From NCBI GenBank assembly GCA_964564105.1, contig CAZLZS010000011.1, positions 1 to 28,785 on the forward strand: 28,785 nt of DNA, read 5' to 3'. Of the stretch, positions 4,186 to 24,039 are shown in pieces. How positions within the stretch are numbered: the stretch's first letter is position 1; each line of letters opens with the position of its first letter. The stretch comes from an uncultured Candidatus Saccharibacteria bacterium (GTDB lineage: Bacteria > Patescibacteriota > Minisyncoccia > Phycocordibacterales > JACOZG01). The notes under the pieces are model-generated. The model had not been told where the DNA came from. It made no database searches and worked only from the letters and a program-made list of their open reading frames with translations. Made by a program: the position numbers and the translations under genes.

Positions 4186-4188
4186 TCT

Positions 4189-4848
4189 ATGAAAACATTT
4201 ATTGTTAGTGATATCCACGCCAACTATCAAGCCCTGATTAATCTATTGTCTATTCTGCGGCCGACAACCGATGACCAGTTGTTATTTTTAGGCGATTACT
4301 TGGATAAAAATCCTTATGTCAGAGAGACGTTAGTTTTGCTAAAATCTCTTCAGGGAAAGTGCCGCTGCGTTTTCCTAAAAGGTAATCATGAATTTGTCTG
4401 GGTTAAATATTTAAAAGATAAGGAGATGGCCCGGCGTGAGTTTATTGAAAGTTACGGCGGTCTGGAAACCTTGCGTCAGTTTTCGGTTAGGCCAGAACTC
4501 ATGACCGCTTACTTAAAAATCATTGATCAGTCGGAGGATTATAAAATAGTCAGCCCGTACTTCGCGACCCACGCCGGCCTTTTGGCGGAACAACTAGACG
4601 ATCCTAAACCGCAGTTTACGGAACTAAATTATTTCGTTCGGCCGCGGCAGATGAATCTCGAGAAAAAATATCTCGGTCAGTATCGAATCGTCGCCGGGCA
4701 TACTTGTTTGGGGACGGAGCCGACTTTTGAAACTGGTTACATCAACATTGATCTCGGCGCTGGTTATCCCGGCGGTTTTATCGGTGCTCTAGATGTTTCG
4801 AGAAATGAAATTATTCGATCCGATGGCCGAAAATTTACGGTCAGATAG
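4189..4848 (+). CDS. Calcineurin-like metallophosphoesterase
   Basis: 219 aa. Metal-binding motifs VSDIHAN (D-x-H), GDYLD (GD), GNHEF (GNH[DE]). Confidence 0.75.
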   Translation: MKTFIVSDIHANYQALINLLSILRPTTDDQLLFLGDYLDKNPYVRETLVLLKSLQGKCRCVFLKGNHEFVWVKYLKDKEMARREFIESYGGLETLRQFSVRPELMTAYLKIIDQSEDYKIVSPYFATHAGLLAEQLDDPKPQFTELNYFVRPRQMNLEKKYLGQYRIVAGHTCLGTEPTFETGYINIDLGAGYPGGFIGALDVSRNEIIRSDGRKFTVR

Positions 4849-4882
4849 CCAAGGATTGATTTTTAAGTTATGATCTAATTTA

Positions 4883-5551
4883 ATGACCAACGATATCTTA
4901 GTGATTGCCGCTCACCCCGACGATGAAGTTCTTGGGGTTGGTGGCACCCTGCTTCGGCACCAGAAGGCCGGCGATAATATTTTTATCCTGATTCTGGCCA
5001 ATGGCGAAAGTTCTCGGGATACCGGCGTTGAAGTGGAAAAACGTTTGAGGCAAGCCACTCAGGTGACTAAATGTCTCGGCGCTAAACTCTTTTTGGAAGA
5101 TTTTCCGGATAATGCTTTTGACAGCGTGCCGCTTTTAAAAGTTGCCAAAGTGGTTGAAAAAGCGGTCGCGGCGGCGAAACCGACCATTGTTTACACTCAC
5201 CATCCTTACGATCTCAATCTTGACCATCGTTTGACTTTTCAGGCGGTTTTGACTGCCTGTCGTCCTCAACCTGGTTTTCCCGTTGAAAAGATCCTCGCTT
5301 TTGAAACTTTGTCTTCGACCGAGTGGCAGACTAAAGATGGGGGCAATGCTTTTTGTCCGCGGCAGTACATTGATATTTCAGATTTTATCGATCAGAAGCT
5401 GGAAATTTTAAAGATCTATCAGGACGAACTTCGAGTTTATCCCCACCCACGTTCAATTGAAGGCGTTAAAATACTGGCTGCTTATCGAGGTTTAGAAGTC
5501 GGATTGAGATTTGCTGAAGCCTTTGAAGTCATTAGAATTTTACAGAGATAG
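4883..5551 (+). CDS. PIG-L/LmbE-family N-acetyl-sugar deacetylase
   Basis: 222 aa. N-terminal ILVIAAHPDDEVLGVGGTL is the signature HPDDE zinc-binding motif of LmbE/MshB/PIG-L deacetylases. Confidence 0.8.
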   Translation: MTNDILVIAAHPDDEVLGVGGTLLRHQKAGDNIFILILANGESSRDTGVEVEKRLRQATQVTKCLGAKLFLEDFPDNAFDSVPLLKVAKVVEKAVAAAKPTIVYTHHPYDLNLDHRLTFQAVLTACRPQPGFPVEKILAFETLSSTEWQTKDGGNAFCPRQYIDISDFIDQKLEILKIYQDELRVYPHPRSIEGVKILAAYRGLEVGLRFAEAFEVIRILQR

Positions 5552-7164: not shown

Positions 7165-8319
7165 ATGATTCTTTACGAACACGAGGGCAAAACTTTGCTC
7201 CAATTCGCCGGTATCACTGTTCCTAAGTCGCAATTGTTAACTAAGGAAAACGAATCGGTAACGATGTTTCTACCCTGCGTTCTTAAAGCCCAAACTCTAT
7301 CCGGGAAGAGGGCTAAGGCGGGCTGGATCATTAAAGTTGGAGATAAAAAAGAAATTTTACCGGCCCTGCATCGTCTCTTTGGCCAATCAATCAATGGTGA
7401 ATTAATAAAAAATGTTTTGGTTGAAGAACAGATCCAATATGAGGAGGAATGGTATGTTTCTTTTTCTTATAATCCAGAAACTCGCTGTCCCGTGATCATT
7501 GTTTCTTCTGATGGTGGTTCGGGAGTTGAAGAGCAGGAAAAGATGAAAGAAATTTTCGAGACAGATATTAGAATATCTTCACTGCCGGCTATAGGCGGCT
7601 TACCAGCCATGTTGATGAGTACTTTATTTAAGCTTTTTTTAGACCAAGATTGCCTATTGCTCGAAATAAATCCATTAGTTAAGACGAGTGTCGGTTGGAT
7701 GGCGCTTGATGCTAAAATTAAGTTAGACGATAATGCCTCCAATCGGCATCCCGAGTGGGCTTATACTCCTCGCTTGACATCTGGACACCAGATCACTGAT
7801 AGGGAGATTGCCGCTAAGCAAATAGATCAAGATGACCATCGTGGGACGGCTGGTTCCAGTTATCTTGACCTTGATGGTGACATCGCTGTCCTTGCTTCCG
7901 GCGGCGGGGCGTCGCTGGTCGCTATGGACGCGTTGATTGCGGCTGGTGGTCGGCCAGCAAATTACACTGAATATTCTGGGAATCCACCGCGGGAGAAAGT
8001 GATTAAATTAACCAAGATTGTATTATCAAAGCCGGGTTTACATGGGCTATGGATTGTCGGTGCCTTAGCTAACTTTACCGATATTTATGAAACGCTCTCC
8101 GGAATTATTTCCGGCTTGCGGCAAGCAGAAAAATCTTTAGGTCGAAAATTTGATTTTCCAATTGTAATTCGCCGCGGTGGACCATATGACGAGAAGGCCT
8201 TTGCAATGTTAAAAGAAGTAAAAGATTTTGATCTTACAATTTATGGTCCTACGATTTCTATTGCTGAATCAGCCAAAGCGGTAGTTCAATTATCAAAAGA
8301 TTACGGCAGTCGAGTATGA
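7165..8319 (+). CDS. Succinyl-CoA synthetase beta-subunit-like ATP-grasp protein (AclB/CcsA-like candidate)
   Basis: 384 aa. MILYEHEGKTLLQFAGITVP resembles SucC MNLHEYQAKQLF. Also LLLEINPLV, and DGDIAVLASGGGASLVAMDALIAAGGRPANYTEYSGNPP matching the SucC C-terminal CoA-ligase domain. Confidence 0.8.
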   Translation: MILYEHEGKTLLQFAGITVPKSQLLTKENESVTMFLPCVLKAQTLSGKRAKAGWIIKVGDKKEILPALHRLFGQSINGELIKNVLVEEQIQYEEEWYVSFSYNPETRCPVIIVSSDGGSGVEEQEKMKEIFETDIRISSLPAIGGLPAMLMSTLFKLFLDQDCLLLEINPLVKTSVGWMALDAKIKLDDNASNRHPEWAYTPRLTSGHQITDREIAAKQIDQDDHRGTAGSSYLDLDGDIAVLASGGGASLVAMDALIAAGGRPANYTEYSGNPPREKVIKLTKIVLSKPGLHGLWIVGALANFTDIYETLSGIISGLRQAEKSLGRKFDFPIVIRRGGPYDEKAFAMLKEVKDFDLTIYGPTISIAESAKAVVQLSKDYGSRV

Positions 8320-9218
8320 ATTTACTTTTACCACCAGACAGTCGATTTATTGGTCAAGGTATCACTGGAGCGGAGGGTCGATCTTCTTTGCCGACCATGC
8401 TCCGTTATGGTACTCAATTAGTGGCTGGCGTCACACCCGGTAAGGGTGGTCAAGAGTTGGAAGGAGTACCCATTTTTAATACTGTCAAAGAAGCGATGGC
8501 GGTAGTGGGTCCGGTAAACAGTAGTGTTCAATTTGTTCCACCGCTTTTTACTTTAGCGGCAGTTCAAGAAGCGCTTCAGGCTGGCATAAAATTTATTCTT
8601 ATCGGTGCGGAAAAGGTACCAACTCGTGATACGGCTACCATTATCAGTTTAGCTAAAACTCATCAGGCAACGATTATTGGTCCGAGTTCAGTTGGTCTGA
8701 TTAATCCTAAGAGGAAATTGAAAATCGGAGCGATTGGCGGCAATAATCCAGACAGAGTTTATACCCCGGGTAACATATCGGTTATTTCTAAATCAGGCGG
8801 GATGACTTCGGAAATAAGCTTGCATCTTAAACAGAATGGTTTGGGGGTGAGTTGGGCGGTAGGTATCGGTGGTGATCGGATTATTGGTAGCGATTTTGTT
8901 GACTGGCTCAAAGCACTCGAAAGTGATTCCGAGACAGCCGCCTCAGTCATTTTTGGAGAATTGGGCGGTACTTATGAAGAGGCGGCCGCGGTTGCCGTCC
9001 AGTCTGGCGCAGTGAAGAAACCTGTAATTGCTTTTATCGCCGGAGAGTTTGCCTCGCGTCTTCCCTCGGAGGTGCAATTTGGCCATGCAGGTGCTTTGAT
9101 TGAAGGTGGCCGCGGTCGGCCCGAGCACAAGCGACAAGTGCTGTCCGCGGCCGGTATTCGAGTGGTGAAGCATTTCGACGAGGTCAGCCAGCTAGTTAAA
9201 GAAGCTCTGGGTAAGTAG
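8316..9218 (+). CDS. Succinyl-CoA synthetase alpha-subunit-like CoA-binding protein (AclA N-terminal / CcsB-like candidate)
   Basis: 300 aa. GITGAEGRSS..YGTQLVAGVTPGKGG, GPSSVGLINP, SKSGGMTSE and the phospho-His loop QFGHAGALIEGG align motif-for-motif with SucD. Four-nucleotide overlap with the upstream gene. Confidence 0.85.
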   Translation: MNLLLPPDSRFIGQGITGAEGRSSLPTMLRYGTQLVAGVTPGKGGQELEGVPIFNTVKEAMAVVGPVNSSVQFVPPLFTLAAVQEALQAGIKFILIGAEKVPTRDTATIISLAKTHQATIIGPSSVGLINPKRKLKIGAIGGNNPDRVYTPGNISVISKSGGMTSEISLHLKQNGLGVSWAVGIGGDRIIGSDFVDWLKALESDSETAASVIFGELGGTYEEAAAVAVQSGAVKKPVIAFIAGEFASRLPSEVQFGHAGALIEGGRGRPEHKRQVLSAAGIRVVKHFDEVSQLVKEALGK

Positions 9219-9227
9219 AATATAAAT

Positions 9228-9902
9228 ATGGCGTTGCTAGTCTCTCATCGAGATGAAGAATCATATTTTGGCGATGAACTACAGCTTGATGTCGGTCAAA
9301 AACTTCATTTCGCCGAGATGATTTTTTGGCTCTTGGCGGAACGCCGGCCCACCGCCGCCGAACTGGCAGTATTTGGACTAATTCTTAATCTCTCAATCGA
9401 TCACGGATCCGAGACGCCATCGGCCAAGGCGACTATCGCGGCGACCAAAGCCGGTCATCCGATAAGCGAGGCAGTCGCCTCCGGGATCAAAGAAATCGAT
9501 CATGTTCATGGTGGAGCGCAGGAAGCCTTGATGCCGATCTTGTATCAAATGGTAAAGGGAAATGTGTCCGCCGCGACTATTATTCGGGATTATCTTTTAC
9601 GAAAAGAACGGGTGCCTGGTTTTGGCCATCGACTTTATACTAAGGTAGATCCGCGGGCGGAATTAATCTTAACTACCCTGCAAGCTCACAGTTTAGGTGA
9701 AGAATATATCAAGGCCGGTTGCTCTCTTGGACAAACACTCAAGCAGGTCACTGGTAAAGACTTGCCGTTTAATATCGACGGTGCGATTGCGGTCGCACTC
9801 TGCGCCTTTGATTTCCCTTCAGCGCTCGGTGCTGCTGTGTTCATCGTCGCGCGTACGCCGGGTTTGTGTGCCCATTTTATAAGTAATCGCCCAGAGACTT
9901 AA
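9228..9902 (+). CDS. Citrate synthase-like catalytic (C-terminal) domain protein; citryl-CoA lyase-like
   Basis: 224 aa. HVHGGAQEA (His274-type), PGFGHRLYTKVDPRA (citrate synthase GFGHRVYK..DPRA, His320-type) and NIDGAIAV (Asp375-type) are the three catalytic signature regions of citrate synthase, ACL C-terminus and Ccl. Confidence 0.75.
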   Translation: MALLVSHRDEESYFGDELQLDVGQKLHFAEMIFWLLAERRPTAAELAVFGLILNLSIDHGSETPSAKATIAATKAGHPISEAVASGIKEIDHVHGGAQEALMPILYQMVKGNVSAATIIRDYLLRKERVPGFGHRLYTKVDPRAELILTTLQAHSLGEEYIKAGCSLGQTLKQVTGKDLPFNIDGAIAVALCAFDFPSALGAAVFIVARTPGLCAHFISNRPET

Positions 9903-9941: not shown

Positions 9942-12074
9942 ATGTCATTAAATTCTATTTTGAAATGGGCAATTACGGTCGGGCTCATCGTGCTGACAGC
10001 CGTGCCGCTCTTAGTGTCTGAATCACTCTTTTTCCCCTTCATCACTGGTAAGGGGTTCTTTTTTCGGATTATTATCGAAGTGATTTTTAGCTTGTGGTTG
10101 ATTTTGGCTTTACGCGATCCGGGCTATCGGCCGCGATCGTCCTGGATTTTTAAGGCCGCGGCCGGGTTCATTATTGTGTTGATTCTGGCCACAGTGTTCA
10201 GTGTAAACTCCTACCGCAGTTTCTGGTCAAATTACGAGCGGATGGAGGGTCTGGTGAGTTATCTGCATCTTTTCGCTTTTTTTCTGATTTTGGTTTCGGT
10301 GATGAAAACCGAACGACTCTGGGGCTGGTTTTTGCACAGCTCGCTGGTCGTTAACGCGGTGATCGGCGTCTATTCGCTTTTGCAGCTTGCCGGCAAACTG
10401 GAAATTCATCAAGGCGGCGCGCGCGTGGACGCCACGCTCGGCAACGCCACTTATCTGGCGGTCTATGTATTATTCCATATTTTCCTGTTGAGTTTTTTAC
10501 TTTCCCGTTTGCTTAATGCCGGCCGCTGGCGGAAAGAATTAAGCCAACGTTTGGCCGGCGCTGGTTATTTACTATTATTGATTCTTGATCTGCTCGTGCT
10601 TTTTCAGACTCAAACTCGCGGCGCAATTTTGGGTTTGGTCGGCGGCGTTCTGATCGCCGCCGTCTGGCTGTTTTTATTTTCGCCGCGCGCGACTCGCGCG
10701 CGGCGCTTGGCTTCCGGCTTGATGATTGCGGTTTTAGTTTTGATCAGCGGATTTTTAACGGTCAAAGACACAACTCTGGTACAAAATAGCGCCACCCTCA
10801 AACGTCTAGCGGACATTTCACTGACCGAGCAGACTACTCGCTCGCGCTTCATGGTTTGGAACATGAGTTGGCAGGGATTCAAGGCGCGGCCGGTTTTAGG
10901 TTGGGGGCCGGAGAATTTCATTGTGGTTTTCAACAAATATTACAATCCGTTGATGTATGATCAAGAGCAATGGTTTGACCGCGCCCATAACGTTTTTTTC
11001 GACTGGTTGATCGCCGCCGGTATTTTAGGCCTATTGTCTTACTTGATGCTTTTCGTTGTCGTGATCTACTATCTTTTCAAACTTAGGGGTGGGGGAGGGT
11101 TCAGGGTTAGTGAGCAGGCGATAATTGTCGGCCTGCTCGCTGCTTACTTTCTTCACAACTTTTTTGTCTTTGACCAACTCGTGAGTCTCTTACTATTTTT
11201 TGGTCTTTTGGCCTACCTGCATACGAGATTTGCGATTGATTGGTCAGAACGGGTCAAGCAGTATTTTATGGCGTCAACGTCGCGTTGGCTGGCGACTGCT
11301 GGCGTGATCGCCGCGGTCATTGGTCTGGTGATAGTTTTTTACTTTGTCAATTTGAAACCGGCGTTGGCCTCACGGACTTTGCTTAGTGCTTTAAGTTTGC
11401 AACGTGCTCCAACAGAAAGTCTCAAACGTTTCGAGCGCGTTTTCGCCTACAACACTTTCGGTTCGGCCGAGGCGACCGAGCAATTGATGCCATTATCTTT
11501 GTCGCTTGCCCGGAATCAAGATGTACCGATTGCTCTAAAACAAAAATTTATCAATCTCGCGGCTGAACGTTTAGAGGCCGAGATCAAACGCGCGCCGTGG
11601 AATGCTCGTTACTATCTATTTGCCGGTTCATTTTATCTTCGGATCGGACAAGTTGATTTAGCGCTCGAACGTTTGGAAAAAGCGCGTGAATTGTCGCCGA
11701 CCAAGCAGGCCATTCTTTTTGAACTTGGGCAGGCGTATTTGACTAAGGGTGATAAAACCGCCGCCCTGGAGATTTTCCGTGAGGCCTATGAGTTGGCGCC
11801 CGGTTTTGATCAGGCCAGGGATTACTTAATAAATATGTATGTGGAGATAAAACAGTTCGATAAATTAATAGCTTTATGGCAAGAAAAAGTGGCTCTGGCG
11901 CCGACTAACGCCGATTACCGCGGTTCGCTTGGCCTATCATATTTTTACGCGGGCCAACGCGAGCAGGCAGTGGTTGAATTTCAGAAGGTGGGTGAATTAA
12001 ACCCTGCTTATCAGCCAGAGGTTGAACGGGTAATTCGCGAAATCCGCGCCGGCCGGAATCCTTTGCCTCAATAA
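9942..12074 (+). CDS. Polytopic membrane protein with Wzy_C/O-antigen-ligase-like domain and C-terminal TPR repeats
   Basis: 710 aa with more than 10 predicted TM helices. Wzy_C-type motif FDRAHNVFFDWLIAAGILGLLSYL. The C-terminal ~250 aa are soluble TPR-like repeats (LGQAYLTKGDKTAALEIFREAYELAP...). An extended -10 TGTTATACT (9924-9932) lies 10 nt upstream of the ATG, so the mRNA looks leaderless. Confidence 0.75.
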   Translation: MSLNSILKWAITVGLIVLTAVPLLVSESLFFPFITGKGFFFRIIIEVIFSLWLILALRDPGYRPRSSWIFKAAAGFIIVLILATVFSVNSYRSFWSNYERMEGLVSYLHLFAFFLILVSVMKTERLWGWFLHSSLVVNAVIGVYSLLQLAGKLEIHQGGARVDATLGNATYLAVYVLFHIFLLSFLLSRLLNAGRWRKELSQRLAGAGYLLLLILDLLVLFQTQTRGAILGLVGGVLIAAVWLFLFSPRATRARRLASGLMIAVLVLISGFLTVKDTTLVQNSATLKRLADISLTEQTTRSRFMVWNMSWQGFKARPVLGWGPENFIVVFNKYYNPLMYDQEQWFDRAHNVFFDWLIAAGILGLLSYLMLFVVVIYYLFKLRGGGGFRVSEQAIIVGLLAAYFLHNFFVFDQLVSLLLFFGLLAYLHTRFAIDWSERVKQYFMASTSRWLATAGVIAAVIGLVIVFYFVNLKPALASRTLLSALSLQRAPTESLKRFERVFAYNTFGSAEATEQLMPLSLSLARNQDVPIALKQKFINLAAERLEAEIKRAPWNARYYLFAGSFYLRIGQVDLALERLEKARELSPTKQAILFELGQAYLTKGDKTAALEIFREAYELAPGFDQARDYLINMYVEIKQFDKLIALWQEKVALAPTNADYRGSLGLSYFYAGQREQAVVEFQKVGELNPAYQPEVERVIREIRAGRNPLPQ

Positions 12075-12204: not shown

Positions 12205-12909
12205 ATGATCAAAAATATTCTTAAGGGTTTCCCACGTCTGTTATTTTCGTCTTTACTTTGTCTTTTGGTCTTTGCCTTCTTTACCTATGCCGCGAGTACT
12301 ATTAGTACCAATATCTCAACTGATGGCACTTTAACCGTCAACGGCAATTCGACTTTTGGCGATGCGGCAACGGATGTTAATTTATTCACCGGGACGCTGC
12401 AGGCTTCAACCACTGCCTTGTTTACAAGCGGATTTACGACTTTTGGCGCTTCAGTTTTTAACGAAAACAGCGGGGCGCTTGACTTCCGGGTGGAAAGTGA
12501 CGGTCAAGCCAACATGCTGTACGTTGATGGAACCAATGATAGGGTTGGCATTGCCAGTAGTACGCCATATGTGGCTTTAGGGGTAGTTGGAACGACTACT
12601 TCAAGTCTCGGCATGAGAATTGGGGCCACCGGATCAGGTATTACTCAACTGTATTTTGGTACTTGTTCTGTCAATTTGCCCAATATTACAGCTAGCAGTA
12701 CGGCCTCAGCTGACTGCACAGCGACCGGAGTTAATCTGGGTGACAAAGTTTTTGTTACTCCGGCCAGTTTAGAGAATCACGTTGTTTTCACTAGCGCTTC
12801 CACGACAGCGGCTGATACGATTCAGGTAAGTGCTTATAATTACGGCGGTGGTCAAGGCACCGCGGTTAATCCGGCCGCGGCGACTTGGTCCTGGATGGCA
12901 GTACGGTAA
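12205..12909 (+). CDS. Secreted Thr/Ser/Gly-rich beta-rich protein (surface protein/adhesin-like), hypothetical
   Basis: 234 aa. N-terminal signal peptide MIKNILKGFPRLLFSSLLCLLVFAFFTYAAS. Low-complexity T/S/G-rich mature region. Confidence 0.6.
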   Translation: MIKNILKGFPRLLFSSLLCLLVFAFFTYAASTISTNISTDGTLTVNGNSTFGDAATDVNLFTGTLQASTTALFTSGFTTFGASVFNENSGALDFRVESDGQANMLYVDGTNDRVGIASSTPYVALGVVGTTTSSLGMRIGATGSGITQLYFGTCSVNLPNITASSTASADCTATGVNLGDKVFVTPASLENHVVFTSASTTAADTIQVSAYNYGGGQGTAVNPAAATWSWMAVR

Positions 12910-12931
12910 TTTCTTTCGCCCTATAATCTTC

Positions 12932-13891
12932 ATGAAAAATGCCTATCTAATCATCTTTTTGTGTCTGACTTTATTTTCTTTGCCGTTAGCCGGTTTTGCC
13001 GCTTACAATGATGTTACTTTAACCACAGACGCGAAAATTACCGCTGGCGGAGCCACTCTCGATGTCACGACCTCGAGTGCGGTGTTAGAGTCTATAATTG
13101 TCAATGCTAGCAATTTTGTAGTGACTCTAGTTTCTTCTGGCACCGGATTGTCGTCAATTCGAGTGTCGTCACCCAATAGATACAAGCTTAATCATTCTGT
13201 TAGCCCAACCTCGGCTTATGTTGTGGCTGATGAATGCAATACTGGTGCTTCAGTAGTTGAGTTTAAGGCGCTTTCCGGTATCAACATAAATGTTACCGTG
13301 ACTCCTGATACAACCCTTACTTGTTCCGGGTCCGGGAGTGGCAGTGGTAGTACCGGCGGCGGTGGCGGTGGTGGTTCAACACCGCCGCCAGCGACTCCGT
13401 CAGCGGTTCCTCCAGTCCCGCCAGTCGTGGTACCGCCAGTGATTCCGCCGCCGTTTGTGGCCCAACCGTCAGCCGTGGCCTTGGCGGTTTCGCCGGTCTT
13501 TAATCGGACCTTGCAGTTTGGTATGGTTGGCGAGGATGTTAAACGTTTGCAGGAGTTGCTAAATTCTGATCCGGAAACCTTAGTGGCGGTTTCTGACGCT
13601 GGCTCGCCGGGCAATGAGACAGACTTTTTCGGTAATTTGTCTCGCCGGGCAGTGGGCAAGTTCCAGCTTAAATATTCCGTGATCGCGAGTGAAGAAGATA
13701 ACGGTTATGGCATTGTTGGTCCCAGAACCCGCGCCAAACTGGCTGAAGTGTTTGGCGGCCAAATCGGGCCGGCGCCGATTCCTGAATTTCAGACTGCCGC
13801 CGTGGCCATCCTGCAAGCCGAACTTCGGCAACTATTGGAGCAGTTAGCGATTTTGTTGCAAGCTCAATTGCGATCTCTAACCGGGCAGTAA
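12932..13891 (+). CDS. Secreted protein with Gly/Ser/Pro-rich linker and C-terminal PG_binding_1 (peptidoglycan-binding) domain
   Basis: The ORF track starts at 12830, but that overlaps the upstream gene. The signal peptide MKNAYLIIFLCLTLFSLPLAGFA begins at ATG 12932. A GSGSGS-G8-PPP linker follows. The C-terminal LQFGMVGEDVKRLQELLN..DGIVGPRTRAKL fits PG_binding_1. Confidence 0.65.
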   Translation: MKNAYLIIFLCLTLFSLPLAGFAAYNDVTLTTDAKITAGGATLDVTTSSAVLESIIVNASNFVVTLVSSGTGLSSIRVSSPNRYKLNHSVSPTSAYVVADECNTGASVVEFKALSGININVTVTPDTTLTCSGSGSGSGSTGGGGGGGSTPPPATPSAVPPVPPVVVPPVIPPPFVAQPSAVALAVSPVFNRTLQFGMVGEDVKRLQELLNSDPETLVAVSDAGSPGNETDFFGNLSRRAVGKFQLKYSVIASEEDNGYGIVGPRTRAKLAEVFGGQIGPAPIPEFQTAAVAILQAELRQLLEQLAILLQAQLRSLTGQ

Positions 13892-13904
13892 TCCCCAATC
13901 GAGA

Positions 13905-13932
13905 TTGACATAAACTCGGCCGTAAGTATAAT
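13905..13932 (+). promoter_or_regulatory. Consensus sigma70 promoter (TTGACA-N16-TATAAT)
   Basis: TTGACA at 13905-13910, a 16-nt spacer, TATAAT at 13927-13932. Predicted transcription start near 13939. Confidence 0.55.
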
Positions 13933-13938
13933 GGCTAA

Positions 13939-14169
13939 CGTGGGTGCTTTTGAGCGGCGCAAGCTGTTCAGAGCTCCAAGAATATAGATGTCTTGCGTAA
14001 GTCCCGCCTTTCGGCGGGATTTGCGTCTATGGACGCCGAAGAGCTATAATACAGGCGATCGTGCCGAGTTGCCGCCGGCGGTCGCACTCACATTAAGACA
14101 TTTAGCTTTTGGAGCTCGCACCCGCCGGCGACATCTGGGCAGGCATGCCGATTTAATCAATTCTAAATT
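13939..14169 (+). ncRNA. Candidate structured leader RNA (riboswitch-like or cis-regulatory sRNA), ~230 nt, class unknown
   Basis: Starts at the predicted TSS of the consensus promoter. Concentric long-range helices: GGGTGC (13943-48) with GCACCC (14114-19); GAGCTCCAA (13970-78) with TTGGAGCTC (14105-13); GATGTCTT (13989-96) with AAGACATT (14089-96). They enclose local hairpins CCCGCC-TTTC-GGCGGG, GCGTC-TATG-GACGC and GCCGCCGGCGG. No ORF of 60 aa or more. Confidence 0.3.
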
Positions 14170-14325
14170 ATGCGTTACACTTGGACCTCGGTCGCCATTC
14201 TCTTTATCTGGATTTCCGCTTCGATTTTGATGGTCTCTAATCGTCTGCCGGATCCGGAGCTGTTTTTCGTCTTTTTGATGGCGATTACTGTGATTCTGGC
14301 TCTGATCGGTTTTCGTTCTAAATAG
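14170..14325 (+). CDS. Small two-TM membrane peptide (51 aa), paralog of the 17730..17897 peptide
   Basis: ATG 14170; the TAG stop abuts the ATG of the next gene (TAGATG). MRYTWTSVAILFIWISASILMVSNRLPDPELFFVFLMAITVILALIGFRSK. Shares a ..IWI.. core and the C-terminal LIGFRS with the second copy, including a 16-nt identical DNA stretch GATCGGTTTTCGTTCT. Absent from the ORF track because it is shorter than 60 aa. Confidence 0.5.
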   Translation: MRYTWTSVAILFIWISASILMVSNRLPDPELFFVFLMAITVILALIGFRSK

Positions 14326-15888
14326 ATGTGGCTTAGTCGGACGCTTCGTTTTTTTCAGCGGCTGATTAAAATCAAGCTGATAATTTTGCGGCTGGCGTTT
14401 GATTGGCGGACCTCTCGGCCGGTACGTTTTCGGATGTTTTTCGAGCGCGCCGGCGGCGCGTTTTTGAAATTTGGTCAGATCCTTTCGCTCCGGCACGATT
14501 TCATCCCGCCGGCTTACGCCAACGAGCTGCTCAATCTCCTGTCGCGCGTGGAGCCGCAGCCGTGGTCGGCCTTGCGCGAGGTCTTTATCGCCGAGATTGG
14601 CGCGCCGCCGGAAAAAGTGTTTCAGCAATTTGATAACCAGCCGATCGCTTCGGCCTCGATCTCGCAAGTTTATCGCGCCGTCTTGCCGGGAGGAGAAACA
14701 GTCGCCGTTAAGATTCAGCGCCCGGGGATCCGCGAAGTGTTTGAAACTGATTTTATTCTGGCCTCATTTCTCGGCGGTCTCTTGTCGATTTTTCGTTTTT
14801 TCGATTCCTTTCAGATTCAAGATATTGTCAGCGAATTTATTTCCGCCACGCGGCGCGAGCTTGATTTCCGAGAAGAATCGAAAAATTCGTTGGCTCTCTT
14901 AGCTCACTCGAGCGAGCATCCCCAAACCATTATCCCCAAATGTTACTCGGAGCTCTCGACCGAGCGGGTGCTGGTGAGCGAATACATGTCCGAGATTTTG
15001 TCAGTGGAAACAGTGCTCGAGCGGCTCGCAGTCAATCTCGGTTATGCCGCCGAGCTTAAAGAGCATCAGCGGATTGATCTTGAAGCCCTGGCCTATTATT
15101 TCGTTTTTGACATTATGCGGCAGTATTTCATCGACGGCTTTTTTCACGCTGATCCGCATCCGGCTAATCTCTTTCTTGCGCCGGACAATCGTTTGGGTTA
15201 TTTTGATTTTGGCATTATCGGGCGGGCAGGCAAGAATCGCCTCGACCTACTCCGAATCATCTACGGTATCGCTAAACGCGATCTCAATTTTTCGAGCCGA
15301 CATTTCCTCCGTTTCGCCAAGAGTGCGATTGCCAAAGAAATGGAGCTCTTCAAGCAGAAAGATCGGACCACTTACGATCGTTACGCCAAAGTGCTCGAGA
15401 AACTGGAAGAAATTATGACCGACAATCTGCACGCCGATCTCGAAAAGATTCTCGCGCCCTGGTACCAAGATCAATCTTCTCGCGATTATCATCATTTGAC
15501 CTCTTCTATCGTTATTTCCAAAATGATCCTCCGAGCTCGGGACTACAGTATCTATTTGCCGCGTGAGATCATTATGTTTTTCCGTACTTTGATTATTTCC
15601 GATATGGTTGCTCTGCGCCTGGCGCCAAATTTTAACATTATGAAAGCACTCAATCGCTTTTTTGATCGTTATCCGCTCGGTGTGGCCGAGGAGTTGATCA
15701 CGGCGCGGGTCCACGAAGCTAAACTCGAAGAAACAGTGGACGCGGCCGCGCACCTGAGTTTTGAAGAACTGTTGGCGCAGAAGGAAGCCGAGCAAGAAGA
15801 ATTGAGTCTGGCCAAGGAGCGCCTAATCAATCTGATTGCCGCTTACGCCGAGGATTATCAGGAGGTTCGCCAGTTGCTGAAGACTTAG
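14326..15888 (+). CDS. UbiB/ABC1/AarF-family atypical protein kinase
   Basis: 520 aa. FLKFGQILSLRHDFIPPAYANEL, IASASISQVYRAVLPGGETVAVKIQRPGI and HADPHPANLF are the ABC1/UbiB kinase-like signature motifs. Confidence 0.85.
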   Translation: MWLSRTLRFFQRLIKIKLIILRLAFDWRTSRPVRFRMFFERAGGAFLKFGQILSLRHDFIPPAYANELLNLLSRVEPQPWSALREVFIAEIGAPPEKVFQQFDNQPIASASISQVYRAVLPGGETVAVKIQRPGIREVFETDFILASFLGGLLSIFRFFDSFQIQDIVSEFISATRRELDFREESKNSLALLAHSSEHPQTIIPKCYSELSTERVLVSEYMSEILSVETVLERLAVNLGYAAELKEHQRIDLEALAYYFVFDIMRQYFIDGFFHADPHPANLFLAPDNRLGYFDFGIIGRAGKNRLDLLRIIYGIAKRDLNFSSRHFLRFAKSAIAKEMELFKQKDRTTYDRYAKVLEKLEEIMTDNLHADLEKILAPWYQDQSSRDYHHLTSSIVISKMILRARDYSIYLPREIIMFFRTLIISDMVALRLAPNFNIMKALNRFFDRYPLGVAEELITARVHEAKLEETVDAAAHLSFEELLAQKEAEQEELSLAKERLINLIAAYAEDYQEVRQLLKT

Positions 15889-16899: not shown

Positions 16900-17733
16900 A
16901 TGAACAAGGAAATTTTGGAGAAGCTAAAAACATATTTTGAAAACCGCGACGAGGTCGTAATGGCGTTTCTTTTCGGCTCACGGGCCGAGGGGCGGGCACG
17001 GAACGATTCTGACTGGGATATCGGTGTGTACTTTAGACCGAAGACCAAGGGAGAATTGGAAACAAAAGAACGGTATACAGGCGAGAGTGAAATTTCTGGC
17101 GAGGTGGCGCGGCTTCTCGGCGCGGAAACTGATGTCGTCGTTCTTAATCGCGCCCGCCCGTCGCTCGTATTTGACGTGCTCAATTCGGGGAAAATCCTCG
17201 CCAACAAGGATGAAACATTGTACCTGGAACTGCTCTCAAAAACTCACTACGAAGCCGTTGACTACTGGAATTTCGTGAAAGAATTTTGGGATATCAGACA
17301 ACAAGCCGCGTCGCTGACCCCTAAAGCCAGGGCATTTCTTGCGGAGCATTTAACGTTTCTTGAAAACGAGTTTGCCGATTTTCCAAAATTTCAGAACCTC
17401 TCGTGGAAGGAGTACCAAGAAAACCGAAGCCAGCGGCGAGAGATTGAGCGCTGGGTAGAAAATGTTGTAATGAGCTTAATTGATATTGCAAAGGTCATTC
17501 TTGCCTCCGAGAAAAAAGATGTGCCGCAGACCTATAACGAGACAATCAAACGATTTGCGATTTCTTTTACCGATGAGAAGGCAGCTGAAAAATTGGCGGA
17601 GTTTGCCGAATTGAGAAATTTAGTAGTGCATGAATACCTTGATTTAAGATTCGCGCGCATTAAAAGGTTTATTGAAGAAGCGGAGACGCAATTGCCTCCG
17701 ATTATTGAGAAGATTAAAGAAATTATAAAATGA
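16900..17733 (+). CDS. Fused minimal nucleotidyltransferase (MNT) + HEPN domain protein (MntA-HepT-like single-chain module)
   Basis: 277 aa. N-terminal MNT motif LFGSRAEGRARNDSDWDIGVYF (GS-x9-10-D-x-D). C-terminal HEPN R-x4-H-x-Y motif AELRNLVVHEY. Confidence 0.75.
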   Translation: MNKEILEKLKTYFENRDEVVMAFLFGSRAEGRARNDSDWDIGVYFRPKTKGELETKERYTGESEISGEVARLLGAETDVVVLNRARPSLVFDVLNSGKILANKDETLYLELLSKTHYEAVDYWNFVKEFWDIRQQAASLTPKARAFLAEHLTFLENEFADFPKFQNLSWKEYQENRSQRREIERWVENVVMSLIDIAKVILASEKKDVPQTYNETIKRFAISFTDEKAAEKLAEFAELRNLVVHEYLDLRFARIKRFIEEAETQLPPIIEKIKEIIK

Positions 17734-17897
17734 AATACCCCTGGACCGCGCTGTCGCTTATTATCATCTGGATTGCCACGACTTATATTGTGATCAAAAC
17801 AGTGAATCTGAATGTTAATTATATTTTGTTGGTTACCCTGGCGGGTACGGTGATTATCTCCTTGATCGGTTTTCGTTCTCCGACTCTGCGGAAGTAG
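17730..17897 (+). CDS. Small two-TM membrane peptide (55 aa), paralog of the 14170..14325 peptide
   Basis: The ATG overlaps the TGA of the MNT-HEPN gene (ATGA). MKYPWTALSLIIIWIATTYIVIKTVNLNVNYILLVTLAGTVIISLIGFRSPTLRK. Confidence 0.5.
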   Translation: MKYPWTALSLIIIWIATTYIVIKTVNLNVNYILLVTLAGTVIISLIGFRSPTLRK

Positions 17898-18178: not shown

Positions 18179-20572
18179 ATGTCTATTTTATCAAGGTTTT
18201 TTGGCGACGATGGTTTGCGCTACTTAAAAAATATCGCGCCGCGAGCCGCGCAAATTAACGTTCTAGAACCACAGTTGATGGCTTTGCCGGATCAGACCCT
18301 CAAAGAGAAAACTGTTGGTTTGAAAGCGCGTCTCGCCGCTGGGGCCACACTCAATGATCTTCTCCCCGAGGCCTTTGCTCTGGTCCGCGAGGCCGCCAGA
18401 CGAACTCTCGGCGAGCGCCATTTCGATGTCCAGTTGCTTGGTGGCATTATTCTTCACGACGGCCGGATCGCCGAAATGAAGACCGGCGAAGGCAAGACTC
18501 TGGTCGCGACACTAGCCGTTTATTTGAATGCTTTGGGCGGTGAGGGGATGCATATCGTTACCGTTAATGATTATTTAGCTCGGCGCGACGCTGTCTGGAT
18601 GGGACAGATTTACAATTTACTGGGGTTGTCGGTTGGCGTGATCAATAATCAGGCGTCGTATTGTTACGATGCCGTTCCCGCCGCGGCAGCGGATGCCAAT
18701 CGCGATACTCTTGGTTCTTTCCAAATCGTTTACGATTTTTTAAGACCATGTTCACGCCGGGAGGCGTACGCCGCCGATATCACTTACGGTTCAAACAATG
18801 AGTTTGGTTTTGATTATCTCCGCGATCATTTGGCTTACCGGCCGGAGGACATGGTCCAAAGGAAGCACCATTTCGCGATCATTGACGAGGTGGACTCGGT
18901 GTTGATTGATGAGGCGCGGACGCCCCTGATCATTTCCGCACCAGTGGCGCCGTCCGGCAGTTTGTATAAAAGTTTTGCGCGCTTGGCCGAGACGTTCAAG
19001 CCCGAAGCGGATTACACCGTGGATGAAAAACATAAGGCCGCGGTTATTACCGAAAGCGGCATTGCCAGAGCTGAACAGAAGTTGGGTTTGAGCAACATTT
19101 ACACCGACCTCGGCATTAAATACGTTCACCATTTGGAAACGGCCGTTCGGGCCAAGGCGCTTTTTCTCCGCGACCGCGACTACGTGGTGCGGGGCGGAGA
19201 GGTTGTAATTGTGGATGAATTTACCGGCCGGCTCCAGCCGGGCCGACGTTGGTCTGATGGTTTGCATCAGGCGATCGAAGCCAAAGAGGGGGTGGCGGTG
19301 AAGGAGGAATCACGAACTTATGCCAGTATCACGCTTCAAAATTACTTTAAACTCTATCAGAAGTTGGCGGGGATGACGGGCACCGCCGCCACTTCAGCCG
19401 AGGAATTCCGCAAGGTTTACAGTTTGGAAGTGGTGGCCGTGCCCACCCATAAGCCGAGCGCCCGCACCGACCTGACGGATTTGATTTTTCAAACCGAGGC
19501 CGGCAAACACCGCGCGGTCGTGGCGAAGATCAAAGAACTCCAGGCGCGCGGTCAACCGGTGCTCGTCGGTACCATCTCAATAGAGAAGAACGAGGCGCTC
19601 TCAATTTATCTGCGGCAGGCCGGCGTACCGCACTGTCTTTTGAACGCCAAAAATCACGAGGAGGAGGCCGCGATTATTGCTGAGGCCGGTAAGGCCGGGA
19701 GCGTGGTCATTGCCACGAACATGGCTGGTCGTGGCGTAGACATTAAGTTGGGCGGCGCCGCGGCGCCACTGGCCGAATACGAGATGGTTAAGCAGCTCGG
19801 CGGGCTCTTTGTTCTTGGCACCGAGCGGCACGAGGCGCGCCGGATTGACAATCAACTCCGCGGCCGGGCCGGCCGCCAAGGTGATCCCGGGACGACCCAA
19901 TTTTTCCTGTCCTTTGAAGATACCCTGACTCGAGTTTTCGTTTCCGGGACGGTCAAAAATATGATTACACGGCTCGGTTTGCCTGAGGTCGAACCGATTG
20001 AGCATCGTTTGGTGGCCAGGGCCATCGAGAGCGCGCAAAAAAAGATCGAAGGTCTGAATTTTGATTTGCGGCGACACCTTTTGGAATACGACAATGTTTT
20101 GAATCACCAGCGGGCGCTGGTTTATGGCCGCCGGGAGCAAATTCTTTTAGGCGATCGTCAGACTCTCAGCGAACTGCTTAAAGATTATGACCCACCGCCG
20201 TCGGTGACCGTTGAGGATTTGCGGCGGATAATGTTGGGCGCTCTGGACGCACTATGGGTGGAGCATTTGGAGGCGATGGAATATTTAAAACAGGGAGTGA
20301 ACCTGCGCGCTTACGGCCAGCGCGATCCCTTTGTCGAATACAAGCGCGAGGGCTTGCGGCTTTTTAAGACCATGGAAGCGACAATGATTGAGACGATTGC
20401 CGCCGCCGTCAGACAGATGGTCGAAGGTGCACTACCTCAAGGTTCGACCTCGCGTAAGATTGAGATAGTTAAAACTTCAGCGGGTAAAAAAGTTGGCCGA
20501 AACGACCCCTGCCCGTGTGGGAGCGGCAAAAAATACAAAAAGTGCCACGGCGCGGCGGCTCCACAATCTTGA
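18179..20572 (+). CDS. secA: Preprotein translocase ATPase SecA
   Basis: 797 aa. MKTGEGKTLVATLAVYLNAL (Walker A/DEAD motor), DEVDSVLIDEARTPLIIS, C-terminal zinc finger CPCGSGKKYKKCHG. The -10-like TAGACT is 9 nt upstream of the ATG and there is no SD. Confidence 0.95.
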   Translation: MSILSRFFGDDGLRYLKNIAPRAAQINVLEPQLMALPDQTLKEKTVGLKARLAAGATLNDLLPEAFALVREAARRTLGERHFDVQLLGGIILHDGRIAEMKTGEGKTLVATLAVYLNALGGEGMHIVTVNDYLARRDAVWMGQIYNLLGLSVGVINNQASYCYDAVPAAAADANRDTLGSFQIVYDFLRPCSRREAYAADITYGSNNEFGFDYLRDHLAYRPEDMVQRKHHFAIIDEVDSVLIDEARTPLIISAPVAPSGSLYKSFARLAETFKPEADYTVDEKHKAAVITESGIARAEQKLGLSNIYTDLGIKYVHHLETAVRAKALFLRDRDYVVRGGEVVIVDEFTGRLQPGRRWSDGLHQAIEAKEGVAVKEESRTYASITLQNYFKLYQKLAGMTGTAATSAEEFRKVYSLEVVAVPTHKPSARTDLTDLIFQTEAGKHRAVVAKIKELQARGQPVLVGTISIEKNEALSIYLRQAGVPHCLLNAKNHEEEAAIIAEAGKAGSVVIATNMAGRGVDIKLGGAAAPLAEYEMVKQLGGLFVLGTERHEARRIDNQLRGRAGRQGDPGTTQFFLSFEDTLTRVFVSGTVKNMITRLGLPEVEPIEHRLVARAIESAQKKIEGLNFDLRRHLLEYDNVLNHQRALVYGRREQILLGDRQTLSELLKDYDPPPSVTVEDLRRIMLGALDALWVEHLEAMEYLKQGVNLRAYGQRDPFVEYKREGLRLFKTMEATMIETIAAAVRQMVEGALPQGSTSRKIEIVKTSAGKKVGRNDPCPCGSGKKYKKCHGAAAPQS

Positions 20573-23967: not shown

Positions 23968-24039
23968 ATTCCGGTGTAGCTCAATGGTAGAGCGGCTCCC
24001 TGTTAAGGAGATGGTTGTAGGTTCGAGTCCTACCACCGG
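23968..24039 (+). tRNA. tRNA-Asn (anticodon GTT)
   Basis: TCCGGTG-TA-GCTC-AATGGTA-GAGC-G-GCTCC-CTGTTAA-GGAGA-TGGTT-GTAGG-TTCGAGT-CCTAC-CACCGGA-G. Perfect 7-bp acceptor stem, D and T arms, U33, GTT anticodon, A37. No encoded CCA. TAGAAT -10 lies about 8 nt upstream. Confidence 0.9.

Follow-up and report, generated by a model that had tools for sequence, protein, structure and literature searches.

What kind of RNA is encoded ahead of a small peptide-ubiB operon in an uncultured Candidatus Saccharibacteria bacterium? In the window (the whole stretch of 28,785 nucleotides that was analyzed), positions 13892 to 14169 form a gap between annotatable open reading frames (ORFs), and this gap was originally predicted to carry one structured leader of the downstream genes. 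Members of the Candidate Phyla Radiation are uncultivated and have tiny genomes, and to our knowledge almost nothing is known of RNA-based regulation or non-coding RNAs in this group. Judged by sequence, the gap holds two RNA modules, here named RNA-A and RNA-B, with their predicted promoters, a long closing helix (P5), a terminator-like hairpin (hairpin b), and three stretches of complementarity between the modules (P1, P2, and P3).

Promoter, fold, and downstream genes of the locus

The region opens with a promoter on the + strand (13905 to 13932), whose -35 hexamer TTGACA (13905 to 13910) and -10 hexamer TATAAT (13927 to 13932) match the consensus at 12 of 12 positions across a 16-nt spacer, just as originally read. 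This sequence feature is conserved: an equivalent promoter is found in homologues, its end 6 to 8 nt 5' of the first conserved RNA base, and in about 75 homologous loci TTGAC(A/T)-N17-(TGC)TAnnAT lies 6 to 8 nt 5' of GUGAGUG. Folding of the + strand from 13938 to 14172 yielded -103.6 kcal/mol (z = -6.0), a value equalled by none of 200 shuffles, and the - strand reached z = -3.4; the non-coding stretch from 13940 to 14145 also folds much better than shuffles (z = -6). Together with its position between ORFs and its conservation with covariation, this bears out the view that a structured non-coding RNA is encoded here.

In this window the leader runs into the peptide-ubiB genes, as had been proposed. 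The first ORF of the downstream transcript, pep1 (14170 to 14325, + strand), encodes a 51-amino-acid peptide with two transmembrane segments and has homologues in 17 clusters. Its stop at 14325 directly adjoins the ATG at 14326 of a gene for an ABC1/UbiB-family kinase (14326 to 15888, + strand; Pfam PF03109, E = 1.4e-57), again in agreement with the original prediction. pep1 is always translationally coupled to ubiB, and a pep1 paralogue, pep2, is located 3' of ubiB.

Two modules in one intergenic region

The 5' module, the sRNA-like RNA-A, covers positions 13940 to 14036 of the + strand, with a 3' end that we infer to lie at or after hairpin b. Following the 5'-terminal seed P1s (GUGGGUGC, 13940 to 13947) are hairpin a (GAGCGGC-GCAA-GCUGUUC, 13952 to 13969), which differs in sequence and length among lineages, the segments P2s (GAGCUCCAAGA, 13971 to 13981) and P3s (AGAUGUCUU, 13986 to 13994), and hairpin b (13995 to 14026), a GC-rich hairpin of 14 bp that is rich in A on its 5' arm and in U on its 3' arm and gives RNA-A a terminator-like end. 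RNA-A is present in 103 loci; in the window, its profile matches at 13939 to 14033 (nhmmer, E = 2e-13), and the module folded alone reaches -48.5 kcal/mol (z = -6.3). In the homologue alignment, 91.6% of the hairpin b cells are paired and 10 of its 14 pairs show compensatory changes, while the 12 nt 3' of its inner GC stem contain a median of 7 to 8 U residues (6 in the window). All sub-threshold Rfam matches at hairpin b were to terminator-bearing sRNAs or leaders. RNA-A has no conserved ORF, and its own promoter and intrinsic-terminator-like end are, at the level of sequence, those of a short non-coding transcript.

The 3' module, RNA-B (14057 to 14145, + strand), is a 5'-terminal long stem-loop made up of P5 and a conserved loop, and in the window it is continuous with the peptide-ubiB transcript. 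Upstream of it we read a promoter-like element (14021 to 14050, + strand) that had previously been missed, with TTGCGT (14021 to 14026) located within hairpin b and TATAAT (14045 to 14050) following after an 18-nt spacer. In 72% of loci, as opposed to 46% of shuffles, a -10-like TAnnnT is found 3 to 14 nt 5' of the P5 base, often with TGn 5' of it. At loci where RNA-A is unlinked (see below), a promoter for RNA-B is also logically required.

P5 had likewise escaped the earlier reading. It is a conserved helix of about 20 bp that closes a conserved loop of about 40 nt, its 5' strand (14060 to 14081) pairing with a 3' strand (14122 to 14143) whose G-rich base, CUGGGCAGG, aligns with the Shine-Dalgarno (SD)/AUG-region segment of loci in which murB follows. 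Compensatory changes occur in 23 of 23 consensus pairs (112 sequences). P5 cells are paired at 88.4%, compared to 31 to 49% in slid controls, and none of 500 shuffles reached this level; the energy of flank pairing is -38.6 kcal/mol for cognate and -20.6 kcal/mol for non-cognate strands. RNA-B, present in 122 loci, forms P5 when folded alone (-40.4 kcal/mol, z = -3.3), and its profile matches the window at 14074 to 14142 (nhmmer, E = 1.8e-16). Covariation in homologues, on which the original prediction had staked its helices, is hence seen in P5 and hairpin b. Of the three GC-rich local hairpins it had named, the one at 13995 to 14026 was retained as hairpin b; the one at about 14055 to 14085, which belongs to the minimum-energy fold, is not conserved.

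Within the P5 loop lie P1t (GCACUCAC, 14084 to 14091), P3t (AAGACAUUU, 14095 to 14103), and P2t (UUUUGGAGCUC, 14107 to 14117). P2t includes a GGAG (14111 to 14114) that is retained in all protein-ascertained homologues.

Complementarity between RNA-A and the loop of RNA-B

These three loop segments, adjacent to each other, are complementary to three segments of RNA-A: P1t to the RNA-A 5' end P1s, P3t to P3s, and P2t to P2s. The order is permuted, being P1, P2, P3 along RNA-A and P1, P3, P2 along RNA-B. The complementarity was found in 77 distinct loci, including unlinked ones, so that RNA-A has the conserved complementarity to another transcript expected of a trans-acting sRNA. Two of the three long-range helices of the original prediction, 13971 to 13981 with 14107 to 14117 and 13986 to 13994 with 14095 to 14103, correspond to P2 and P3 and were kept. 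The outermost one, in which 13940 to 13947 would pair with GCACCCGC (14119 to 14126), is absent in L009, L010, L012, and L016 and was given up; the conserved partner of the RNA-A 5' end is P1t, which calls for either a pseudoknot or intermolecular pairing.

For P1 (duplex energy -11.5 kcal/mol), 98.8% of cells are paired (41 RNAs), and its first pair is G:C in 56, G:U in 15, A:U in 6, and A:C in none of the 77 loci (Fisher p = 2e-4). For P3, 95.7% of cells are paired, and an extension pair is A:U (57), G:U (11), or U:A (6), with 3 mismatches. RNA-A was left out of the search pattern, which was built on the loop core; because the core is thereby forced to be constant among the metagenome loci, P1 and P3 rest on few compensatory events. 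P2 occurs in complementary versions specific to lineages, and its duplex energy is -16.0 kcal/mol in the window; cognate pairs average -12.0 kcal/mol versus -9.7 kcal/mol for non-cognate ones. An ungapped covariation test gave a weak signal for P2 (7.3 versus 6.7 of 10 pairs), and this helix is statistically the weakest, with modest covariation.

Given that G:U occurs but A:C does not, the pattern indicates that P1 and P3 would pair at the RNA level, on the + strand of the window. An inverted repeat acting at the DNA level or an invertible promoter was ruled out by the permuted segment order, the G:U tolerance, and the zero count of A:C.

Distribution and linkage of the modules

More than 120 metagenome contigs carry homologues, as do 4 metagenome-assembled genomes (MAGs) of Patescibacteria. 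The 4 MAG loci were recovered via UbiB, further loci via the peptide, and at least 120 metagenome loci via the loop core. Pattern matches in L018, L087, L101, L069, L104, L048, L057, L126, and L118 were discarded as unrelated, as were three on viral contigs that are identical to L104.

Each locus has one copy per module. Of 102 loci, 92 have both in tandem on the same strand, separated by a median of 67 nt. RNA-A lies 0.8 to 6.3 kb upstream in seven loci (L056, L114, L085, L036, L060, L025, and L113) and on the opposite strand in three (L112, L105, and L120), and all 10 unlinked copies have their own equivalent of the RNA-A promoter and hairpin b. As RNA-A can be encoded far away or on the other strand, pairing in trans is implied, and the sequences suggest that RNA-A is able to act in this way; in the window, pairing in cis after read-through is possible as well. 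The idea of one multi-stem aptamer of about 230 nt is not supported by these observations, the 5' part having its own promoter and terminator-like hairpin and being unlinked in 10 loci.

Genes surrounding the RNA

A tblastn-based classification of the genes downstream of 111 distinct RNA-B copies assigned 56 to murB, 23 to the peptide (with ubiB), and 27 to neither. In addition, peptide-ubiB operons exist without the RNA (L005, L006-8, L013, and L014-15). The link to UbiB that had been proposed is thus not a general one, and a UbiB-specific leader was dropped as a candidate after the metagenome scan. L005 (Vogelbacteria), a close relative, has the same gene order and lacks the RNA, which must accordingly be dispensable at least at this position. 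The most constant neighbor is secA, found downstream in 22 of 31 murB loci, 16 of 19 peptide loci, and 20 of 22 loci with neither gene. Upstream genes vary by locus and include Wzy_C-TPR, TsaE, and RT. A bAvd gene and RT flank the RNA in L012, and bAvd is also found in L005; a link to diversity-generating retroelements was dismissed as coincidental, since bAvd/RT were not called in the other loci with listed genes.

For most loci with murB or pep1, the start of that gene was estimated to fall between about -20 and +40 nt from the P5 end. About 60% of loci have their next start codon directly beside P5 or within it, which leaves no space for a further promoter. In murB loci, the start codon is located at or within the P5 base, and the P5 3' strand carries a G-rich, SD-like sequence just 5' of the murB AUG. 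In the window, 24 nt separate the SD-like part of P5 from the peptide AUG, which is embedded in AU-rich sequence; translation of the peptide may therefore be independent of P5 here. The loop bound by RNA-A would be about 20 bp from the P5 base, and a route from there to opening or closing a ribosome-binding site is not evident.

Many of the 27 RNA-B copies with neither gene end in a clear intrinsic terminator, and free-standing copies also retain the P5 base (UUGY..CC with GG..RYAA). In L116, L103, L030, and their relatives, RNA-B is separated from murB by a terminator and by a promoter-like motif that is conserved, and it is therefore not a simple cis leader in those genomes. An attenuator platform in this lineage was considered and is weakened by the motif itself, a TGn plus -10-like element (UAUGCUUUAAUAU) after the terminator and directly 5' of the murB AUG.

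Comparison with known RNA classes

No Rfam 15 family was reached by RNA-A or RNA-B in the window and 26 other loci. At the gathering threshold, the sole match among 14 homologous loci was a tmRNA elsewhere in L037, and the sole match in the window was tRNA-Asn at 23970. In E-value mode, the window region and 12 loci gave chance-level sub-threshold matches, mostly to terminator-type sRNAs or leaders. The Rfam scan thus upholds the original statement that no recognized riboswitch class is involved. ARAGORN detected no tmRNA in the window, and an informal comparison by eye showed no resemblance to the consensus features of RNase P, SRP, 6S, or tmRNA. Our search of the literature on CPR RNAs found no description of an RNA of this two-module kind.

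In overall character, there is a likeness to raiA RNA (RF03072), a single RNA whose own 5' and 3' ends pair (P1, with GU and GGU bulges) and which contains P3a/b, P4, PK1, PK2, and 51 highly conserved nucleotides (PMC12968392, PMC10861870). It has been reported only from Bacillota and Actinomycetota (PMC10861870, PMC12968392), and a Bacillota neighborhood reads comFC-raiA RNA-hpf-secA (PMC10861870). Shared with raiA are the character of an abundant-looking, independently promoted, structured non-coding RNA without a described function in what may be a similar hpf/secA neighborhood, a predicted compact core (that of raiA is called triangular) from which variable arms extend, a long and conserved stem that closes it, and a conserved ...AGAC(G/A)U... 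stretch. In contrast, the elements come in an order that has no counterpart in raiA, and the closing helix P5 lies wholly within the 3' module, with the 5' module separate. The raiA model gave no match in the window region (E up to 10) or in 12 loci (E up to 5), and membership in this class was ruled out by covariance-model score and architecture. We nevertheless entertain, with more doubt than conviction, the idea that RNA-A and RNA-B are an undescribed, widespread two-piece RNA of Patescibacteria that may be a functional counterpart of raiA RNA.

As in two-piece tmRNA, the fold would be built of two RNA chains joined by conserved intermolecular helices. Two-piece tmRNA is processed from one permuted precursor and consists of a tRNA-like and a tag-coding part, whereas the RNA pair has two predicted promoters and neither of these parts; in L037, it coexists with a normal tmRNA.

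Proposed action of RNA-A and alternative explanations

Our leading interpretation, held with equal measures of confidence and doubt, is that RNA-A is an sRNA that clamps the loop of the 5'-terminal stem-loop RNA-B and probably controls the downstream transcript. RNA-A would be made as an sRNA of about 90 to 100 nt from the promoter at 13905 to 13932 and end at the GC-rich hairpin and U-rich tail, and RNA-B would start about 7 nt past the internal -10 (14045 to 14050) and head the pep1-ubiB(-pep2) transcript. By clamping the whole loop, RNA-A is predicted to create a closed three-helix ring, in which its CUCC would cover the loop GGAG, and binding may then alter the fate of the RNA-B-led transcript. 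Because RNA-A would cover the GGAG and the murB start codon lies at or in the P5 base, the likeliest effect appears to be post-transcriptional: a ribosome standby or entry site could be blocked and/or a duplex of about 20 bp could be presented to RNase III.

Loop-targeting antisense RNA may serve as a working analogue of RNA-A action. CopA/CopT of plasmid R1 is a system of this kind, and IstR-1/tisB exemplifies an sRNA directed at a 5' untranslated region (UTR) and its standby site. Common to these and the present pair are a small, strongly promoted, terminator-ended RNA directed against a loop or upstream single-stranded region of a structured leader, a buried ribosome-binding site in that leader, a multi-helix junction or long duplex suited to RNase III, and a regulator encoded beside its target. 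Unlike in those systems, the pairing of RNA-A is trans-encoded, with no cis-antisense overlap, and uses three permuted segments that encircle one loop; the RNA-B stem-loop also exists free-standing, neither a toxin gene nor a replication gene takes part, and the lineage is Patescibacteria.

A different reading, possible but rather doubtful, is that of an autonomous two-piece non-coding RNA or ribonucleoprotein, in which RNA-A and RNA-B are halves joined by P1, P2, and P3 into a compact core, the three-helix ring, with P5, hairpin a, and hairpin b as arms. Its function would then be independent of the downstream gene, adjacency reflecting compact genomes and secA synteny, and P5 might in addition serve as a stalk for processing. 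Free-standing RNA-B in many diverse lineages, with its own -10, P5, and a strong terminator, speaks for such an RNA, as do the conserved P5 base of these copies, the single copy of each module per locus, and the varying downstream gene next to a constant secA. An hpf/raiA-like ORF 3' of RNA-B in L062 also echoes the Bacillota order comFC-raiA RNA-hpf-secA (PMC10861870). However, pairing between the modules and their helices explain nearly all conserved positions and leave few unpaired ones that could bind a protein or ligand or form an active site, the start codons that abut or enter P5 in about 60% of loci suggest coupling to that gene, and L005 keeps the gene order without the RNA.

More remote is a single cis leader of the riboswitch type, about 200 to 230 nt in length, with a pseudoknotted aptamer (P1, P2, P3, and P5) and ligand-responsive control of the operon, which we consider improbable. 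Tandem placement on one strand in most loci, with a short median gap, would permit a single read-through transcript, and as with riboswitches a strong promoter directly precedes a conserved, covarying, pseudoknotted structure; P5 has its base over the SD/AUG in murB loci and is followed by a terminator elsewhere, superficially like alternative expression platforms. Yet this aptamer would be split across two transcription units whose linkage is not obligatory, as the 5' module ends like a terminator, the 3' module has a promoter-like element in front of it, and 10 loci have the modules kilobases apart or on opposite strands. We found neither a whole sensor in one 5' UTR nor a coherent downstream gene set for one ligand, the associations being heterogeneous down to no adjacent gene; conserved nucleotides that stay unpaired and could form a binding pocket are few, and no Rfam riboswitch matched. 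Gene distribution and split architecture thus argue against a metabolite riboswitch dedicated to the pep1-ubiB operon. A type I toxin-antitoxin system, with pep1 as membrane toxin and RNA-A as antisense antitoxin on the leader of the toxin mRNA, is hardly credible to us: a small two-transmembrane peptide does lie directly downstream and an sRNA pairs with a highly structured 5' UTR, as in tisB/istR-1, but the peptide follows only 23 of 111 RNA-B copies, most of which precede murB, it is always coupled to ubiB, with the paralogue pep2 after ubiB, and the peptide-ubiB pair is found without the RNA.

A clamp of RNA-A on RNA-B, wrapping three helices round the loop of a long hairpin, would be an unusual mode of recognition. 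The pair occurs in more than 100 contigs, is strongly promoted, lies outside Rfam, and precedes either murB, an essential peptidoglycan gene, or an operon for a membrane kinase, mostly with secA nearby. Should the pair prove regulatory, Patescibacteria would gain their first family-wide sRNA-target pair, and with it a handle on the control of envelope synthesis; should it prove autonomous, a class of structured RNA on a par with raiA would be added to those known. Under both readings, defined sequences are at hand for studies of probing, binding, and structure.

One homologous locus, L002, has about 100 N over the 5' module, which resembles an assembly gap. L124 encodes the same peptide sequence as L002 and carries the RNA intact, with about 257 nt between the same flanks.

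Two RNA modules upstream of pep1 and ubiB

The window carries a sigma-70 promoter, TTGACA-16-TATAAT, at 13905-13932 (+), matching the consensus at 12/12 positions. It lies in the gap (13892-14169) between a 353-amino-acid (aa) open reading frame (ORF) without Pfam domains (12830-13891) and the ORF of a 51-aa two-transmembrane (two-TM) peptide (pep1; 14170-14325, +), whose stop codon adjoins the ATG of an ABC1/UbiB kinase gene (ubiB; 14326-15888, +), as had been described. The plus strand of 13938-14172 folds with -103.6 kcal/mol (z = -6.0; minus strand, z = -3.4). Based on the promoter match, this fold, and the location between ORFs, we regard the previously noted structured leader as real. 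The original prediction had recognized no known riboswitch class and suggested an Rfam scan; that scan of the leader region revealed no match at gathering thresholds or at E values up to 10.

Comparison with homologues divides the region into RNA-A, an sRNA-like 5' module (~13940-14036), and RNA-B, a long 3' stem-loop (~14057-14145), both on the plus strand. RNA-A comprises strand P1s (GUGGGUGC, 13940-47), hairpin a (13952-69), which differs between lineages, P2s (13971-81), P3s (AGAUGUCUU, 13986-94), and hairpin b (13995-14026), whose inner stem is GC rich and whose arms are rich in A (5') and U (3'). In RNA-B, helix P5 (14060-81 with 14122-43) closes a loop harboring P1t (conserved GCACUCAC, 14084-91), P3t (14095-103), and P2t (14107-17, including GGAG at 14111-14). 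The minimum-energy fold reproduced the three nested long-range helices first proposed, but the partner of the 5' end had to be revised: in homologues, GUG(A/G)GUG is complementary to GCACUCAC at 14084-91, not to 14119-26, where the earlier candidate GCACCC is absent from L009, L010, L012, and L016. P5, not listed originally, surrounds the 3' strands of all three helices. In the window, P1 is 8 bp long (duplex energy, -11.5 kcal/mol), P3 is 9 bp (-7.7 kcal/mol), and P2 is 11 bp (-16.0 kcal/mol). Since the segments are ordered P1-P2-P3 in RNA-A and P1-P3-P2 in RNA-B, a complex of the two would close into a three-helix ring from which P5 and the two hairpins, a and b, extend as arms.

Distribution of the modules and their downstream genes

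UbiB relatives in GTDB genomes led to four loci, one in Ca. Vogelbacteria (96% identity) and three in other Patescibacteria metagenome-assembled genomes (down to 52%); the peptide is present in all four, as is the RNA wherever sequence is available. The peptide family is small (17 clusters). Among contigs found through the peptide, the RNA is present in L009, L010-12, and L016-17, and peptide-ubiB operons lacking it (L005, L006-8, L013, L014-15) have intergenic gaps of just 36 to 103 nt. Genes of diversity-generating retroelements adjoin the RNA/peptide locus in two relatives (L012, 1302-2737; L005, 4913-5266; bAvd and RVT_1 reverse transcriptase), an association we judged coincidental.

A metagenome scan with the loop core GCACTCAYAT-N0-3-AAGACAT-N1-12-GGAG matched at least 120 stretches, and among the matches listed only about one-quarter had the peptide downstream. 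L104 and the IMG/VR loci L138-L140 were discarded as chance matches (GCACTCACATAAGACATGGGATGTCTATGGAG) in unrelated sequence outside the RNA family; this sequence recurs without change in one metagenome contig and three viral ones. Classification by tblastn of 111 distinct RNA-B copies among the listed matches placed murB directly next in 56, the peptide plus ubiB in 23, and neither in 27 ("none" loci); five were too short for a call.

The gene secA (window 18179-20572, +) is the constant downstream neighbor of the RNA pair in the window and most related loci, being found on the same strand in 22/31 murB, 16/19 peptide, and 20/22 "none" loci with enough sequence. Between the pair and secA lie murB, the peptide and ubiB, an hpf-like ORF (L062), or, in several "none" loci, small, extremely Lys/Ala-rich ORFs (e.g., MAKKKLAKKKPAAKKKPAAKKK...) located 100 to 400 nt 3' of RNA-B (L033, L059, L083, L085).

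RNA-A and RNA-B as predicted separate transcription units

Profile searches yielded 103 loci with RNA-A and 122 with RNA-B, and no locus had more than one of either. Of the 102 loci with both modules, 99 have them on the same strand; the median gap is 67 nt. RNA-A is situated 0.8 to 6.3 kb upstream of RNA-B in seven loci (L056, L114, L085, L036, L060, L025, L113) and on the opposite strand in three (L112, L105, L120), and all 10 unlinked copies carry a promoter and a hairpin b of their own. RNA-A must therefore be able to pair in trans. A single-chain, riboswitch-type aptamer, one of the readings in the original prediction, is disfavored: a 5' module kilobases away or inverted cannot belong to an obligate single chain, and the downstream genes are heterogeneous. 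We consider this explanation improbable.

TTGAC(A/T)-N17-(TGC)TAnnAT precedes every RNA-A (about 75 loci), ending 6 to 8 nt 5' of GUGAGUG, and a median of 7 to 8 U residues falls within 12 nt 3' of the hairpin b inner stem. The only Rfam similarities there, all weak, were to terminator-bearing sRNAs and leaders. A TATAAT-like element also occurs in the middle of the "leader" (TTGCGT-18-TATAAT, 14021-50, +), between the modules. Across loci, a -10-like hexamer lies 3 to 14 nt 5' of the P5 base in 72%, compared to 46% of shuffles; in examples read by eye, 7 to 11 nt separate its end from the conserved UUGU at the P5 base. The promoters, ends, and functions of both RNAs remain predictions from sequence.

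Covariation of the helices

P5 covaries strikingly (e.g., CGCCGGCGG, GGCCAGCG, GGCUGACGG, GGCUAGCG), with compensatory changes at 23/23 pairs in 112 sequences. Its cells were paired in 88.4%, versus 31 to 49% with the partner slid by 1 to 3 columns (0/500 shuffles as high), and flank pairing reached -38.6 kcal/mol for cognate versus -20.6 kcal/mol for noncognate strands. In 41 full-length RNAs, hairpin b was 91.6% paired (10/14 pairs compensatory), P1 98.8%, and P3 95.7%. P1 and P3 vary little, yet such changes as exist are compensatory. At the first P1 pair, G:C occurs 56 times, G:U 15, A:U 6, and A:C 0 (Fisher P = 2e-4), and the P3 extension pair is A:U in 57, G:U in 11, and U:A in 6, with 3 mismatches. 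Because the search pattern fixed P1t, P3t, and GGAG, these are invariant among the metagenome loci by construction; for P1, P3, and GGAG, only RNA-A and the loci ascertained through proteins provide unbiased measures of conservation. P2, poorly aligned by MAFFT, scored 55% paired. Per-locus duplexes revealed complementary, lineage-specific P2 versions (mean energy, -12.0 kcal/mol for cognate versus -9.7 kcal/mol for noncognate), and an ungapped covariation test gave a weak signal.

RNA-B as a predicted mRNA leader or free-standing RNA

In most of the 56 murB copies, the estimated start codon lies about -17 to +30 nt from the P5 end. Most murB start codons sit at the P5 base or just past it, leaving no room for a further promoter. 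RNA-B is thus the predicted mRNA 5' end in these loci. Their only Shine-Dalgarno-like sequence is the G-rich 3' strand of the P5 base (UGGGGG, UGGAGG, UGGGCG), so that P5 would bury the site of initiation. The G-rich segment that aligns with this strand in the window, CUGGGCAGG (14136-44), is about 25 nt 5' of the peptide AUG, itself in an AU-rich stretch, which makes an effect of P5 on initiation less obvious there.

Free-standing RNA-B copies, with a textbook terminator directly 3' of P5, occur in many of the 27 "none" loci (e.g., L047, L052, L046, L039, L060). In the L116/L103/L030 lineage, the stretch from RNA-B to the murB AUG contains a terminator followed by a conserved motif, UAUGCUUUAAUAU, made up of TGn and a -10-like hexamer; the P5 base sequence is kept there too.

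Across all peptide loci, the peptide ORF begins with 17 nt (ATGCGTTACACTTGGAC, 14170-14186) that are identical at synonymous sites, even where UbiB is only 52 to 58% identical. This hints at RNA-level constraint on the ORF start.

Proposed function and alternatives

Our leading interpretation, which we judge about as likely as not, is that RNA-A is a small RNA dedicated to pairing with the loop of RNA-B, a 5'-terminal stem-loop that stands free or is fused to the following mRNA. In the window, RNA-A would act posttranscriptionally on the pep1-ubiB transcript, possibly by masking the exposed GGAG/U-rich loop or by creating an RNase III substrate upon pairing. The main alternative, an autonomous two-piece RNA made of RNA-A and RNA-B, is in keeping with the free-standing copies and the constant secA neighborhood; we regard it as possible, though clearly the weaker candidate. 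That the pair serves a type I toxin-antitoxin module is very hard to reconcile with the gene distribution, as the peptide is next in just 23/111 RNA-B copies.

The secA neighborhood and the hpf-like ORF in L062 recall the raiA-RNA/hpf/secA region of Bacillota; the raiA motif RNA is known from Bacillota and Actinomycetota, with the hpf/secA neighborhood in the former (PMC10861870). However, RNA-A/RNA-B cannot be fitted to the raiA architecture, and E-value scans of the window region (E up to 10) and 12 homologous loci (E up to 5) gave no raiA match. Rfam left the pair unmatched in a total of 26 homologous loci, and no description was found among the Rfam families and literature searched. sRNAs that base pair with a structured RNA are a kind already known; the predicted three-helix loop clamp, the fused-or-free partner, and the lineage are new.

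Neighboring genes in the window

A second small two-TM protein, pep2 (MKYPWTALSLIIIWIATTYIVIKTVNLNVNYILLVTLAGTVIISLIGFRSPTLRK, 17730-17897, +), is a paralogue of pep1 (34% identity) and lies ~280 nt upstream of secA. A copy directly follows ubiB in 17/23 peptide-type loci, so that UbiB is flanked by two related mini-membrane proteins; murB and "none" loci lack pep2. The pep2 start is overlapped by the stop of a single ORF (16900-17733, +) in which a Polbeta-type nucleotidyltransferase (MNT) is joined to a HepT/HEPN RNase domain; the two are usually separate halves of a toxin-antitoxin pair.

A sugar-modification cluster (211-5551, +; NeuB/SAF, methyltransferase, ATP-grasp, epimerase, metallophosphoesterase, PIG-L deacetylase) and, downstream, a Wzy_C-TPR O-antigen-ligase-like gene (9942-12074) place the RNA pair in a cell surface polysaccharide setting in the window. 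Three consecutive genes at 7165-9902 (+), encoding ATP-grasp_2 plus Citrate_bind, CoA_binding plus Ligase_CoA, and a Citrate_synt C-terminal domain, resemble a split ATP-citrate-lyase or citryl-CoA system, which is probably unusual in a Patescibacteria genome. An 851-aa protein (24195-26750, +) combines major-vault-protein shoulder and repeat domains with an SPFH/Band_7 domain.
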